Positions 2-39,424 of a DNA stretch of 64,000 nucleotides are shown piece by piece. The stretch is from the sequence record OR699282.2; one strand, written 5' to 3'. Within the stretch, counting starts at the first letter, position 1; each line of letters begins with the position of its first letter. The notes beneath the pieces were generated by a model, which searched no databases, was not told the origin of the DNA, and was given only the letters and a program-made list of their open reading frames with translations. The DNA is from Escherichia phage BAU.Micro_ELP-22. The translations under genes were made by a program, and so were the position numbers.

Positions 2-1792
2 GCAATTCTTACTGCTACACGTGAAATTATTGATAACAGCTTAGATGAATTTAAAAAAGCTGGAACCAAAGAACCTGTTTTGAAAGTTGATTTCAATGAA
101 GAAGAACTATCATTTGAAATTAGTGACAATGGACGTGGTATTCCAATTGATTATGTTCCAGAGTATCAGAAAAACTTGTGTACTATGGTAATGACTGAAA
201 CAAAAACAGGCCGTAACTTTGACGATTCAAAACGTGATGAAACGATTGGTCAGAATGGTTTAGGTGGTTCTGTTGCAATGATTGTCAGTTCTAAGGCAGA
301 GTTAGAAATTCATCGCCAAGGTCGTCCGTATAAAACACAAAGTAGTAATGATGGTTATGATGGGTTTTATAAGTTCAATCAGAAGTTTGAGGAAGGAACT
401 ATTATGTTCCCTGAGCTTCATGTACACGAACCTACTATTAGAAAGGTACAAACCGATAAAACTGGAACAACAATTCGTTTTACTTTGAGTAAAGAAGTTT
501 TTCCAAACAGAAAACTACCAACCGAATTACTTTATAGTATTCTTAAAGAAATGGCAGCAGCTAACCCAACTTATAAAATCTTTCTGAACGGGAAACGTAT
601 TGCTATTAAAGGAAACACTGAAAAAGCACTCTTCAATGCATCTAAATTAATGCAGTTGAATGTTAAAGATGATTCATTCAATTTTAACAGTACTTTTTAT
701 ATTGTTCCTAATGCAGTAGCTGGCATGAACACGAATTTCCATATGCATGGGTTGGTTAACAATGCTCCTGCATTTGATGGTGGTACACATCTTGATACAT
801 TCAAGAAATTCTTCTCACTCGGTGTAGGAACTGCACTAGAGAAAGAATCTAAGAAACGTAGGATGAAACCAAATCGTTCTGATATTGAAGAAGGTTTGTT
901 GATTTATAATGTCACAACTATGAAAGCACCTTCATTCAACTCACAGATTAAATCTAAACTAACTAATGAAAACGTAATCCGTCCAATTCAACAAGCTATG
1001 AGTACCGAATGGTTTGATGAATTAGTTAAGAAGAACAAAGAATGGGTTGATGAAATCTTCGAACGTTGTGCTGCCCGTACAAATAAGAAAGATGCAGAAG
1101 AAGATCGTCGCCTAGCAAAGAAACTTCTAAAAGGTAAAGTTGCAAAACTATTGGATAGTACTGGAACAGACCGTTCACAGTGTATTCTATTGATTGCAGA
1201 AGGTGACTCTGCAATTTCCAACATGGCTAGTGCTCGTATACCAAGTATTCATGGTATTCTACCATTGCGTGGGAAAATTATGAACGTCAGTGGTACTGAG
1301 AAAACCAAAGAATTAATGGATTCAATGGCTTTACATGATATAATGGCTAGTATCAACTTAGTTCCAGGTGTCAAAGCAGAACGTTCTGAACTAAACTATG
1401 GTAAGCTTTACATCTGTGCTGATGAAGATGAAGATGGGAAGAACATTGGTGCTCTAGTGTGTAACTTCTTATTTAAATTCTGGCCTGAATTGTTTCAAGA
1501 CCCAGAAAATCCATTTGTGTATGTATTCAAAACACCATTTATCATTCTTGAGAAAGGTAAAGAATCAAAATACTACTATGGTCATAATGTGCATGAATAT
1601 AACCCAGATGATTGGAAAGGCTGGAAAGCAACGCGTGCAAAAGGTTTAGGAACTTTAGAAAAAGCAAACTTCCGTGATGCATTCACTAATAGTGTTGCAG
1701 TAGCGATCACCGATGATGGCCGTCTTGGTGAAACTCTTGATTTGATTTTCAACAAGAAACGTGCAGATGATCGTAAGAACTGGATGGAATAA
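2..1792 (+). CDS. 39: DNA topoisomerase II large subunit, 5' partial (GyrB-like ATPase plus Toprim in one ORF)
   Basis: Frame open to window edge; GHKL N-box-like EIIDNSLDE at N-terminus, GQNGLGGS, Toprim ILLIAEGDSA and acidic ADEDEDG motif. Confidence 0.85.
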   Translation, partial: AILTATREIIDNSLDEFKKAGTKEPVLKVDFNEEELSFEISDNGRGIPIDYVPEYQKNLCTMVMTETKTGRNFDDSKRDETIGQNGLGGSVAMIVSSKAELEIHRQGRPYKTQSSNDGYDGFYKFNQKFEEGTIMFPELHVHEPTIRKVQTDKTGTTIRFTLSKEVFPNRKLPTELLYSILKEMAAANPTYKIFLNGKRIAIKGNTEKALFNASKLMQLNVKDDSFNFNSTFYIVPNAVAGMNTNFHMHGLVNNAPAFDGGTHLDTFKKFFSLGVGTALEKESKKRRMKPNRSDIEEGLLIYNVTTMKAPSFNSQIKSKLTNENVIRPIQQAMSTEWFDELVKKNKEWVDEIFERCAARTNKKDAEEDRRLAKKLLKGKVAKLLDSTGTDRSQCILLIAEGDSAISNMASARIPSIHGILPLRGKIMNVSGTEKTKELMDSMALHDIMASINLVPGVKAERSELNYGKLYICADEDEDGKNIGALVCNFLFKFWPELFQDPENPFVYVFKTPFIILEKGKESKYYYGHNVHEYNPDDWKGWKATRAKGLGTLEKANFRDAFTNSVAVAITDDGRLGETLDLIFNKKRADDRKNWME

Positions 1793-33962: not shown

Positions 33963-34298
<336 letters not shown>

Positions 34299-34299
34299 A

Positions 34300-34482
34300 A
34301 TGACACACGAAGAATGGATGTCCAAACAGCATAAAGAACATGACTGCTTTGGGAATGGCATTCGTCAGGTACATTATGATATATTAAGAGATGAAAATCT
34401 TTTCAGGTCATATGTTTTGGATACCAGAAAACCCTGGTTTATATGCGAACTGGCATTTAGAAAGTCAAATAATCAAAACTAA
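34300..34482 (+). CDS. MTHEEW mini-protein family member 3
   Basis: 60 aa; MTHEEWM...WFICELAFRK. Confidence 0.5.
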   Translation: MTHEEWMSKQHKEHDCFGNGIRQVHYDILRDENLFRSYVLDTRKPWFICELAFRKSNNQN

Positions 34483-34498
34483 ACAAGGAATACAAAAA

Positions 34499-34717
34499 AT
34501 GGAAACAACTTTATTAGAAGTTATTCAATCATTAAAACCTGAAGATGAGGTTCAAGTACTACTACATGGTTATCGTGTAAAAGGTACTGTGGTTTTAGTC
34601 AATGATACAACATTGGTTATTACAGAAACAAACCCATATGATAGTAATCAACTTGCCAATATCCATATCGATATCACTGGAATTATTGGTGTCGGTGTAT
34701 CTAAAACACTTGCATAA
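34499..34717 (+). CDS. Hypothetical protein
   Basis: 72 aa from ATG with AGGAA RBS. Confidence 0.45.
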   Translation: METTLLEVIQSLKPEDEVQVLLHGYRVKGTVVLVNDTTLVITETNPYDSNQLANIHIDITGIIGVGVSKTLA

Positions 34718-34770
34718 ATCATTAATTCATTATATAATGATTATCACTGGTTCTAGATGAGGATAATATT

Positions 34771-35043
34771 ATGCATTTTGAAAAATTCAACGTAAATCGT
34801 AACACACGCATTGAAGTTCTTTATGAAACTCAAGACACCATTAGTATTCGTACAAGTAGTGGGGATGTATATCATGACTGTACGATTGGCTGGGAACAGG
34901 GAAGAACGCGTAGTGCAGTATTTGATAATTATCGCTTTTATCAAGGAGACACTACGATTTGGCCTGAATACGTAGAAGATATTGCGTTTGAAGATGAACA
35001 TAAAGATGAATTTATCAAATTTAATCCTCAAACTGAATCATAA
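34771..35043 (+). CDS. Hypothetical protein
   Basis: 90 aa; GAGGA RBS. Confidence 0.5.
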   Translation: MHFEKFNVNRNTRIEVLYETQDTISIRTSSGDVYHDCTIGWEQGRTRSAVFDNYRFYQGDTTIWPEYVEDIAFEDEHKDEFIKFNPQTES

Positions 35044-35048
35044 ATAAT

Positions 35049-35176
<128 letters not shown>

Positions 35177-35180
35177 AAAT

Positions 35181-35282
<102 letters not shown>

Positions 35283-35287
35283 AAACC

Positions 35288-35448
35288 ATGACGCATGAAG
35301 AATGGATGAATGACATTAATTTTAGATATTCGGGTATCGGTAAATGGCTAAAGTATCATTGGGAATTCATTTCAGAGCCACATATGTATGATAAACTTAT
35401 CAACGATCCAGCATATGAAATGTACTTAATTGAACTACTGGTACGAAT

Positions 35449-35452
<4 letters not shown>
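35288..35452 (+). CDS. MTHEEW mini-protein family member 4
   Basis: 54 aa; MTHEEWMNDINF...; below ORF-track threshold. Confidence 0.4.
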
Positions 35453-35614
<162 letters not shown>

Positions 35615-35624
35615 AAAAAAAAGA

Positions 35625-36033
<409 letters not shown>

Positions 36034-36037
<4 letters not shown>

Positions 36038-36061
36038 CTAAATAATTCAGTACTGTATAAT
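36034..36061 (+). promoter_or_regulatory. Early promoter, conserved-spacer family
   Basis: TTGACT-aaataattcagtactg-TATAAT; drives tRNA-Gly. Confidence 0.7.
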
Positions 36062-36063
36062 GC

Positions 36064-36147
<84 letters not shown>

Positions 36148-36167
36148 TTAATAATTCAAAGGTGAAT

Positions 36168-36344
36168 ATGATGCTATCACACAAAACAGCAACTGTTGAA
36201 AATATTGAATCATTATCTGCACAAGAATTGGTTGACAAAATTAAAGAAGTATGTGATAATAATGGCATTGATATGAATGATACATTTATTAGTGTAGGTT
36301 ATGGTGATTTAGAAATTCAATCTAAAACACTATATTATACTTGA
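36168..36344 (+). CDS. Small hypothetical protein
   Basis: 58 aa from ATG with AAGGTGA RBS. Confidence 0.45.
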   Translation: MMLSHKTATVENIESLSAQELVDKIKEVCDNNGIDMNDTFISVGYGDLEIQSKTLYYT

Positions 36345-36362
36345 CTAAATAGTTCAGTACCG
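36341..36362 (+). repeat. Degenerate copy of conserved-spacer promoter (has -35 and spacer, lacks -10)
   Basis: TTGACTaaatagttcagtacc followed by GAAGGAG rather than TATAAT. Confidence 0.5.
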
Positions 36363-36400
36363 AAGGAGATTAATATGTTTAAAGATGAACGTCCAGATTT

Positions 36401-36441
<41 letters not shown>

Positions 36442-36448
36442 GAATTCC

Positions 36449-36788
36449 ACAATCAGACGTATATGGTGTAAGTTACGTCGATGCAATCCAGAACAAGATC
36501 TCTGGTACTCTAGGAAGTGGTGAATGTTAACCTAGACGGGTTTGATAATTGGACGATAGGCAATTATTACTTGACTAGCAGGTTGAAACTAGAGGTGACA
36601 GTCCTTCACCAAACTGGAAAACCGGATGGACTTTTATTTAAAAGGGTAAGGCGTGGAAATATGTTTACAGAAGTTGCTTTTAGTAGCCTGTACGCCCCAC
36701 GTCAAGGTAGCCGAAAGGCAAGTTAAAACGGATGGTTATAAAGCTGAATTAACAGCGGCGTTTAAAAGCGTCACCATCCATTTTTTTT
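36449..36788 (+). ncRNA. Candidate structured non-coding RNA (about 340 nt) within the tRNA island
   Basis: Starts at predicted TSS of promoter 36413; GC-enriched versus flanks; ends in ggatggt...caccatcc stem plus T8; only internal ORF has GTG start. Confidence 0.35.
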
Positions 36789-36804
36789 AATTAAAGTTGG
36801 TGAT

Positions 36805-37194
<390 letters not shown>

Positions 37195-37210
37195 TATTAA
37201 GTATTGATAT

Positions 37211-37456
<246 letters not shown>

Positions 37457-37461
37457 CTAAA

Positions 37462-37626
<165 letters not shown>

Positions 37627-37650
37627 ACGAAATTACAATAGGAAATTAAA

Positions 37651-37836
37651 ATGCAACTTTTAATTCTTTCAATATTGTATATTATTATAATGGTTCCGAT
37701 ATCAATACGTTTAATTACAGTTGAACGATTTTTATCGAAACATGGAAATAGATCTATGATCTTTGTACCAATCGGGTTGATATTGTTTGGTATATTTTCA
37801 TTTATAATGGGAATTAACGCTACATTCATTTCATAG
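37651..37836 (+). CDS. Small membrane protein
   Basis: 61 aa; two hydrophobic helices; AGGAAA RBS. Confidence 0.45.
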   Translation: MQLLILSILYIIIMVPISIRLITVERFLSKHGNRSMIFVPIGLILFGIFSFIMGINATFIS

Positions 37837-37845
37837 GAAACAAAT

Positions 37846-38103
<258 letters not shown>

Positions 38104-38111
38104 GAATTTAA

Positions 38112-38513
38112 ATGAAAAAGAATGACTTGATCAAAATGCTTCAAGAGATTGACGGCAATCCAGAGATTGTTATTTGGAATGGATATGTCGATGATTATAT
38201 GAACATCGAAAAAGGCTTGACTAAAATCACTCTAGTCAAAGAAACTGAACAGTTCCTTCTGGAAGCATTAGTGCACGAATGGTGCAAACGTAACAATACA
38301 TTCGACATTCCAGAAGATCAACGAACTAAGATTGCAGAACGTGCTAAAGAACTGCATAAGAAACGCGAATACGATTTCCAGAACCCACATGTTACTGAAG
38401 ACGAATTCAATCACTGGTACGGTAAAAAGAAATTGACAAAGTATGTCCTTTCACCTAAACTACGTGGTAAGACTTCACTTGGTGTATTCAACGCCGCAGA
38501 CTTAAACTACTAG
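38112..38513 (+). CDS. Hypothetical protein (paralogue of next gene)
   Basis: 133 aa; N-terminus MKKNDLIKMLQEIDGNPEIV parallels next ORF. Confidence 0.55.
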   Translation: MKKNDLIKMLQEIDGNPEIVIWNGYVDDYMNIEKGLTKITLVKETEQFLLEALVHEWCKRNNTFDIPEDQRTKIAERAKELHKKREYDFQNPHVTEDEFNHWYGKKKLTKYVLSPKLRGKTSLGVFNAADLNY

Positions 38514-38522
38514 CGGGTATTA

Positions 38523-39071
<549 letters not shown>

Positions 39072-39073
39072 TA

Positions 39074-39130
<57 letters not shown>

Positions 39131-39143
39131 AGTAAGAGTAAAA

Positions 39144-39316
<173 letters not shown>

Positions 39317-39328
39317 TATCTTACTTCT

Positions 39329-39407
<79 letters not shown>

Positions 39408-39424
39408 CAAAATAAAGGTACACT

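Follow-up and report, generated by a model that had tools for sequence, protein, structure and literature searches.

The 64,000-nucleotide (nt) stretch of Escherichia phage BAU.Micro_ELP-22 analysed here (OR699282.2; hereafter, the window) carries a promoter-to-terminator unit at positions 36449 to 36788, within an island of transfer RNA (tRNA) genes. This unit consists of two separable RNA modules and a terminator and is not one RNA. Its first module, designated module A, is an RNA gene with a defined fold; it belongs to a family that occupies tRNA islands in several groups of phages, moves horizontally between them and is dispensable. On balance, we consider it rather probable that the region is transcribed as non-coding RNA, from a sigma-70 promoter through modules A and B to the terminator, and that the module A RNA is stable, acts in trans on a conserved host component and is accessory to the phage.

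Fold and covariation of module A

Module A is matched over its full length by two covariance models, R1 and R2, which were also used for the searches described below, and its fold is supported by covariation. It contains about 8-10 helices, including two pseudoknots:

36443-36631, + strand: module A, a structured RNA of ~190 nt
CCAC 36447-36450 / GTGG 36517-36520, + strand: P1 pseudoknot, with its 3' arm inside the H3 loop
36452-36461 / 36474-36482, + strand: H1 hairpin (ATC-A-GACGTA/TACGTC-GAT), compensatory changes at 7 of 9 pairs
36488-36491 / 36502-36505, + strand: H2 hairpin (CCAG/CTGG), compensatory changes at 3 of 4 pairs, loop variable in length and sequence
36509-36514 / 36531-36536, + strand: H3 (TCTAGG/CCTAGA), formed around the P1 3' arm, compensatory changes at 6 of 6 pairs, 99% of cells paired
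36544-36551 / 36561-36568, + strand: H4 (GATAATTG/CAATTATT; helices 5 and 6 of the covariation test), compensatory changes at 6 of 8 pairs, 92-100% paired
ACTTG 36569-36573 / CAGGT 36579-36583, + strand: S1, forming an H-type pseudoknot with S2
CTAG 36575-36578 / CTAG 36589-36592, + strand: S2, forming an H-type pseudoknot with S1, with an A-rich loop 3 (TGAAA)
GGTGA 36594-36598 / TCACC 36606-36610, + strand: H6, with a 7-nt loop (CAGTCCT) in which the C and CCT are invariant
36614-36617 / 36622-36625, + strand: H7 (CTGG-AAAA-CCGG), possible but doubtful, paired in window-like lineages and weak in Aeromonas copies

In a model-guided alignment of 20 sequences from ~7 clades, with statistics that ignore phylogeny, standard pairs filled 96.4% of 944 cells and compensatory changes were found at 28 of the 49 pairs. 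The covariation score was 0.44, compared with 0.155 for shuffled alignments (0 of 500 reached the observed value) and 0.05-0.08 when pairing partners were slid by one to three columns. A structure-blind MAFFT alignment gave nearly the same picture (93.9% paired, score 0.43), and in this alignment P1 was 100% paired in 20 of 20 sequences with two compensatory pairs (CG:14/GC:6 and AU:18/UA:2). The helices of the compact H-type pseudoknot (36569-36592) were each 100% paired across the 20 sequences, with two compensatory pairs apiece, and H6 was likewise 100% paired, with one compensatory pair of three types (GC:13, AU:5, UA:2). In other lineages, the H2 stem is replaced by CCG/CGG, CCCAC/GTGGG or CCTT/AAGG. 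Conserved G-U pairs (for example, GU:15 and UG:19) identify the + strand as the folded, and therefore transcribed, strand.

Conservation also extends to bases outside the helices. Module A has ~50 invariant positions, many of them in loops and junctions. The 12-nt loop of H1 carries a conserved A-Y-G-R-Y-G-U-A motif, the H4 loop (GACGATAGG) retains a GACGAT core across the family, and the stretch that holds H7 (36614-36629) ends in a conserved 3' motif, GATGG, whose G, T, G and G are invariant. Several functional readings of individual elements were tried and ruled out. T-box-like UGGN:NCCA pairing fails in the Aeromonas copies, which have AGCAC/GUGCU, and the same copies have GGUUA/UAACC in H6, which dismisses a Shine-Dalgarno/anti-Shine-Dalgarno mimic. 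A CsrA-type GGA sponge was rejected because the conserved bases are not GGA motifs; a kissing dimer through the H2 loop AGATCT, the only palindromic loop, because that loop is not conserved; and a long-range GGUUUG/CAAACU helix because its variation is uncompensated.

Distribution, coding potential and mobility of module A

The module A family comprises 20 distinct copies, from six phage lineages and four metagenome contigs. The isolate lineages, with identities from blastn, are as follows:

Asteriusvirus (jumbo coliphages such as 121Q, PBECO4 and SP27): full length, 97-99% identity
Alcyoneusvirus (RaK2, K64-1): 94% over module A
Bragavirus (T4-like Straboviridae; PM2, Pm5461, SdyM006, Mm5): 85-92% over 187 nt
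Novosibvirus (T5-like Demerecviridae; Proteus phages 1 and 2): 85-92% over 187 nt
Emmerichvirinae (Aeromonas phages 65, avDM6, AP1, CC2, P19 and others): core 70-85%
Stephanstirmvirinae (phi92-like; Klebsiella phage KP13-16): core 70-85%

Trained on 12 sequences, a covariance model matched the entire length of each of the 20 distinct copies, with scores of 68-243 bits. The four contigs, one of which holds two divergent copies, came from a pattern scan of metagenomes, whereas a scan of viral contigs returned the same isolate genomes only. When the pattern was relaxed, six extra viral-contig loci appeared that neither matched the model nor lay near tRNAs; as a negative control, these loci indicate that the tRNA association described below is no artefact of the search. 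No module A was found by pattern scan in 185,579 species-representative bacterial and archaeal genomes, nor in 5,426 Escherichia coli genomes searched for a host counterpart. The searchable literature yielded no description of this RNA, and in public records the locus is either blank or called a hypothetical protein. We regard module A as representing a robustly real, previously undescribed family in a kind of system that is already known.

All copies share the orientation of the tRNA genes around them, and most fill the unannotated interval that separates one tRNA from the next:

PM2 and SdyM006: tRNA-Gly, module A, tRNA-Asp
Proteus phage 2: tRNA-Leu, module A, tRNA-Leu
Aeromonas phages: tRNA-Pro, module A with a ~80-nt extension, tRNA-Thr
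KP13-16: tRNA-Leu, module A, tRNA fragment, tRNA-Ser
Metagenome contig L024: tRNA-Leu, module A, tRNA fragment, tRNA-Met
Metagenome contig L023: module A, tRNA-Arg, module A

The 5' end of the module (AAUUCCAC) begins 0-1 nt past the CCA of the upstream tRNA, or ~2-8 nt past a -10 box; for the Aeromonas copies, the gap to the CCA is 0-2 nt with the tRNA ends given by ARAGORN itself. The 3' GAUGG motif stands 7-16 nt upstream of the next tRNA. Downstream, each lineage has something else: a promoter, module B, a tRNA fragment or a tRNA gene (Asp, Glu, Leu, Thr or Arg). No protein gene near module A recurs from one lineage to another.

Some of these neighbourhoods have features of their own. In L023 (a 3.2-kb contig of ERZ808232), the divergent copies at 2097-2284 and 2414-2608 flank a single tRNA-Arg(ACG) and are 317 nt apart. 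In KP13-16 (L007, 2132-2180) and L024 (~159-279, minus strand), a tRNA-Leu remnant comes directly after module A: its T-arm, acceptor strand and CCA are present, its 5' half is missing, and it shares 85-92% identity with FelixO1-like tRNA-Leu genes. The 3' acceptor strand of this fragment in L024 (CUGAAGC) is complementary to the H3 3' arm of module A. The Aeromonas copies (L004, L013-L016) continue past GATGG for ~80 conserved nt before tRNA-Thr, with the hairpins GGTTGA...TCAACC and AGGATATAATCA...TGATTATATTCC.

The initial annotation had proposed a candidate non-coding RNA (ncRNA) without a convincing open reading frame (ORF) and had pointed to a sole internal ORF with a GTG start:

36517-36726, + strand: ORF of 69 codons, labelled 'hypothetical protein' in 121Q and some other records; judged here to be no gene

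This ORF exists, at 69 amino acids, but the idea that it is a small protein gene, as annotated in 121Q and some relatives, is scarcely credible and already largely refuted. The window has this frame open, several Asteriusvirus records annotate it, and Proteus phage 2 and KP13-16 keep it open across module A. However, it is broken by in-frame stops in RaK2, K64-1, PM2, SdyM006, contigs L021 and L022, both copies of L023 (L023a/b), Mm5 and the Aeromonas copies, with the stop falling at the third codon in PM2 and SdyM006, even though the DNA of window-like lineages remains 76-94% identical. Substitutions track base pairing rather than codons, the GTG itself is the 3' strand of the P1 helix, and the tRNA-flanked copies leave no room for the 3' half of the ORF. 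The 69-residue product had no Pfam or PHROG match, while the neighbouring 129-residue ORF matched a PHROG at 3e-57. A conserved homologous protein, named in the initial annotation as one finding that would count against an ncRNA, is therefore not what the homologues show. With stops in most homologues checked, a multi-helix fold supported by the proposed covariation analysis, and copies that lie unannotated between tRNAs elsewhere, the non-coding assignment is upheld.

A second alternative is that module A is a degenerate tRNA or transfer-messenger RNA (tmRNA) relic, or a signal at the DNA level (a recombination or homing site), with no function as RNA. The tRNA clusters that contain it do hold seg-type homing endonucleases, and a tRNA fragment adjoins it in KP13-16 and L024. 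Yet ARAGORN, run with relaxed thresholds, found no sense-strand tRNA, intron-containing tRNA or tmRNA in module A, only inconsistent and mostly antisense artefacts, and Rfam 15 (4227 models, applied at the gathering threshold and at permissive E-values) gave no tRNA, tmRNA or YrlA match to it. Decay is moreover incompatible with 96% pairing and compensatory changes over six lineages, and the strand-specific G-U pairs point to RNA rather than duplex DNA. This alternative is accordingly very unlikely.

The family is mobile and can be lost. Module A of the window and that of PM2 are 93% identical, whereas the tRNA-Gly(UCC) genes beside them share only 64%; phage families have therefore exchanged the RNA gene independently of its neighbours. 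The T5-like copy is 85% identical to that of the window. In five Asteriusvirus records, including phAPEC6, the match is limited to the first 39 nt of the unit. In phAPEC6 (MK817115.1, L026 1476-1560), the promoter and ~36 nt of module A are kept and are fused directly to a homologue of the ORF at 36805 of the window, a deletion that the other four records probably share. Accordingly, the unit counts as accessory.

Such mobility raises the question of a catalytic or mobile-element RNA, whether a self-cleaving or group-I-like ribozyme or a small mobile cassette RNA. This would explain the invariant core and the spread among unrelated phages, and it is in keeping with the two pseudoknots, with the ~50 invariant positions (many unpaired) and with movement independent of the flanking tRNAs. 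The two divergent L023 copies, 317 nt apart around tRNA-Arg, and the tRNA-Leu 3' fragment after module A in KP13-16 and L024, as if an insertion had truncated a tRNA gene, also speak for it. Nevertheless, no group I intron or self-cleaving ribozyme family in Rfam matched any of seven copies at E up to 10. Because the flanking tRNAs are intact, module A is not an intron, and there are no terminal repeats, no target duplications and no associated recombinase, endonuclease or reverse transcriptase genes. We regard a catalytic or mobile-element RNA as distinctly unlikely.

The composite unit and the possible action of module A

In the initial annotation, the region was described as one candidate ncRNA unit of ~340 nt. 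Its extent as a non-coding unit from promoter to terminator stands, but it is not one RNA: it has two modules, of which module A is the widespread family described above. The remaining elements are the following:

36413-36441, + strand: sigma-70-type promoter, TTGACT (36413-36418), 17-nt spacer, extended -10 TG and TATAAT (36436-36441)
36631-36644, + strand: A/U-rich linker hairpin (CTTTTATTTAAAAG) joining modules A and B; elsewhere, the site of a promoter or of whole extra units
36645-36724, + strand: module B, a long imperfect hairpin (GGCGTGG 36650-36656/CCACGTC 36697-36703), then a GCC-GAAA-GGC hairpin (36710-36719)
36730-36788, + strand: branched intrinsic terminator with a 7-base-pair (bp) closing stem, GGATGGT (36730-36736)/ACCATCC (36773-36779), then A and T8 (36781-36788)

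These elements agree with what had been described from the letters of the window. The promoter is present and scores 11 of 12 (TTGACT-17-TATAAT), with a predicted start at ~36447-36449. The segment is indeed enriched in G+C, at 41% compared with 28-30% in the flanking ORFs and 33% in the whole window, and the stem ggatggt...caccatcc with T8 was found at 36730-36788. The suggested folding check showed the whole unit to be more stable than its shuffled versions (z = -2.8; 0 of 100 as good). The closing stem of the terminator encloses two small hairpins, and this branched loop is why a simple terminator scan did not list it; although the loop is atypical, the G+C-containing stem followed by A and U8 marks it as a rho-independent terminator.

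The separation of the modules is evident from relatives. In the RaK2 alignment, a 42-nt insertion between window positions 36644 and 36645 carries TTGAAC-17-TATAAT. In L021 (JACCDR011713278.1), a metagenomic relative of 121Q, ~380 nt occupy the module A/B junction, comprising in order a promoter-driven hairpin RNA, a promoter-driven tRNA-Arg and a promoter directly upstream of the module B homologue. Because RaK2 and L021 each provide module B with a promoter of its own, module A (36443-36631) and module B with the terminator (36645-36788) are separate genes. In the window, no promoter-like site was found on the + strand at 36441-37185, and in this phage the two modules are, as read from the DNA, fused in a single promoter-to-terminator unit.

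Module B has a fold z-score of -2.8; its counterparts in RaK2-like phages share 86% identity with it, and those in kuraviruses share 83% over a core of 54 nt. In kuravirus XT32, its basal stem GGCGUGG/CCACGUC is replaced in compensatory fashion by GCUGUGG/CC(C)UCAGC, although support for the predicted fold is limited, coming from few lineages. A module B pattern scan found 121Q only. Together with the U8-tailed terminator, module B resembles an independent small RNA (sRNA) gene. The module B-like hairpin of XT32 (L006) lies in a ~650-bp intergenic region, 1230-1880, which has no Rfam match; its sole annotation is a reverse-strand hypothetical protein, and it may hold further structured RNA. 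The stretch between the modules in L021 (424-800, minus strand) begins with the promoter-driven hairpin RNA named above, which is ~190 nt long, is closed by the long, perfectly paired stem ATCAACGGTGAGTAACATTG ... CAATGTTACTCACCATTGAT and has no counterpart in the window; phages of this type appear to carry a battery of small promoter-driven RNA genes.

The surrounding island holds 7-8 tRNA genes on the + strand (33985-39408). The 20-nt promoter core TTGACTAAATAGTTCAGTAC occurs four times on this strand of the island (35625, 36034, 36341 and 36413), against a chance expectation of 0.04, and module A in RaK2 and L021 is likewise preceded by an equivalent promoter. Within 36339-36431, a 23-nt version of the core, ACTTGACTAAATAGTTCAGTAC, forms a direct duplication 70 nt apart, the first copy lacking a -10 box; between the copies lie a Shine-Dalgarno sequence (AAGGAGA) and a 9-codon mini-ORF, 36375-36404 (MFKDERPDL). 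Several Asteriusvirus records align only from about base 64-81 of the blastn query, and the duplication may be absent from them. Y-shaped branched terminator hairpins also occur at several sites in RaK2-like tRNA islands (RaK2 L002, 2443-2470 and 4093-4143), one copy in RaK2 overlapping a promoter-like site at 2464-2492. Elsewhere in the island of the window, Rfam reports an extra tRNA at 35181-35259, directly after tRNA-Ser(UGA); at 29.3 bits, it is just at the threshold, is absent from the ARAGORN output and may be a divergent or decaying tRNA. Small paralogous ORFs (MTHEEWM...) scattered among the tRNA genes open with ATGACACATGAAGAATGGATGA, which is present five times (33523, 33781, 34300, 35288 and 35449); also members of this family are two longer repeats of 91 nt (33710 and 34229).

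How module A would be made differs between phages. In jumbo phages, it would be transcribed from its own promoter, whereas in T4-like, T5-like, Aeromonas and phi92-like phages it would be excised from polycistronic tRNA precursors. There, ribonuclease (RNase) E would cut the A/U-rich AAUU after the CCA and RNase P would cut at the downstream tRNA, and exonucleolytic trimming would then proceed back to the structured core. The roles of RNase E and RNase P in maturing such tRNA-embedded copies follow from established knowledge of tRNA processing. The product would be stable and self-sufficient, and its invariant single-stranded bases would bind, in trans, a conserved macromolecule or ligand of the host; its role, in host takeover or counter-defence, would be accessory and non-essential. 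A stable, accessory trans-acting RNA directed at a host component is favoured by the combination of an own promoter in jumbo phages, likely excision from tRNA precursors elsewhere, the lack of a constant downstream partner and of an associated protein, the invariant unpaired bases, the horizontal spread and the natural loss. It is from these features that we infer the stability, processing route, trans action and host target of module A.

The principal alternative to action in trans is a cis-acting element of tRNA-island transcripts. It might serve as a scaffold or spacer for processing, admit or block an RNase, or control downstream RNA as an attenuator or riboswitch, and it would be functionless once released. 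Module A always lies in or next to tRNA transcription units, its borders are A/U-rich and cleavage-prone, in the window it stands upstream of module B and the terminator, and its ornate conserved junctions would suit a ligand-binding aptamer. On the other hand, the downstream neighbour is different in every lineage, and the sequence past GATGG holds no conserved expression platform. Module A is directly followed by a new promoter in RaK2 and L021, where it therefore controls nothing downstream. A riboswitch would be expected to have a constant class of downstream gene and an expression platform, and module A has neither. We consider a cis-acting element unlikely.

The trans-acting RNA remains the favoured explanation, as no rival fits the varying downstream context and the strong covariation equally well. 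Several points nevertheless weigh against it. Every statement on maturation and trans action rests on inference, and no computation performed here points to a binding partner, ligand or target of module A. The predicted start at 36447-36449 would cut off the first bases of P1, and H7 showed no compensatory change in the 20-sequence alignment. The sample is of modest diversity, and counting of column pairs for extra tertiary contacts gave a signal dominated by clade structure. Finally, copies from different phage families could be so alike because transfer was recent, rather than because every base is under functional constraint.

A more specific version of the trans-acting RNA, speculative and in our view unlikely, is an RNA-only effector for anti-defence or host takeover: a decoy or aptamer that neutralises a conserved host factor without any phage protein, encoded by a ~190-bp cassette that spreads among unrelated virulent phages via their tRNA arrays. 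If this were true, candidate targets would include an immune nuclease that targets tRNA or senses RNA, an enzyme of RNA processing or a nucleotide used in immune signalling, and the host's tRNA-processing enzymes would mature module A for free within tRNA arrays.

Comparison with known RNAs

The recommended Rfam cmscan search was run, and modules A and B of the window matched no family, either at the gathering threshold or at E up to 10. Six homologous copies from five loci, searched with the same E limit of 10, and the kuravirus locus, searched to E = 1, likewise matched no family; the module A models, in turn, had no match in the kuravirus intergenic region. The closest known systems are, first, RNAC and RNAD of phage T4 and, second, GOLLD and ROOL, and membership in either was excluded by the tests described below.

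More distant parallels come from processed or abundant transcripts. The 3'ETS-leuZ sRNA sponge of E. coli is a segment of a tRNA precursor that RNase E and RNase P excise and that acts in trans; it is a short, weakly structured spacer that base-pairs with sRNAs. Module A, in contrast, is a long, pseudoknotted and independently mobile gene with no identified complementary target. PA5oct, a jumbo phage of the RaK2/121Q-related group, also has non-coding transcripts: ncRNA001 and ncRNA002 were defined by RNA-seq, are abundant (2-5% of phage reads) and have no known function (PMC7318152). However, R2 with filters off found no match over the region of both, and a tRNA-cluster location is unreported for them.

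GOLLD and ROOL are ornate, pseudoknotted RNAs of phages and prophages, often near tRNA islands, possibly cotranscribed with tRNAs and of unknown function (PMC5737381; PMC12286853). Module A is like them in kind only, being phage-encoded, with multiple pseudoknots, near tRNA islands and without an associated protein; it does not match their Rfam models. GOLLD and ROOL occur mainly in Firmicutes, Actinobacteria and environmental phages, whereas the module A family is found in virulent phages of Enterobacterales and Aeromonas. Size sets them apart as well, since GOLLD and ROOL are roughly three to four times as long as the ~190 nt of module A, with many GOLLD RNAs exceeding 800 nt (PMC12286853).

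The initial annotation had drawn an analogy with the T4 species 1 and 2 RNAs (RNAC and RNAD), whose function is still unknown (PMC3014915; PMC9697503). As an analogy, the shared niche of a stable RNA in a co-oriented tRNA cluster survives; homology, by blastn and covariance models, does not. The T4 RNAs are small and stable, lie in the tRNA cluster on the tRNA strand and adjoin a tRNA, and module A occupies the same niche; presumably, both undergo the same tRNA-type maturation. However, blastn at word size 7 gave only chance matches of <=15 nt between them, and R1 and R2 had no match in the T4 tRNA region. The T4 RNAs are also shorter, at 139 and 119 nt, and RNAC, as read from its sequence, ends in a tRNA-like T-arm and acceptor sequence that module A lacks. 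Module A, for its part, is common to several phage families and has its own promoter in jumbo phages.

These comparisons place module A within a wider question. The T4 species 1 and 2 RNAs are a long-standing puzzle of phage tRNA clusters, and GOLLD and ROOL show that the niche is general. Several public phage records label this locus a hypothetical protein, an annotation that can now be corrected; in the other records found, it had been left blank. The module A family is compact and easy to work with, and it occurs in coliphages that can be cultured as well as in phages of Proteus, Klebsiella and Aeromonas. Its defined two-pseudoknot fold, natural deletion variants, copies with and without their own promoter, and independent mobility thus make the role of a tRNA-island RNA testable by E. 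coli genetics.

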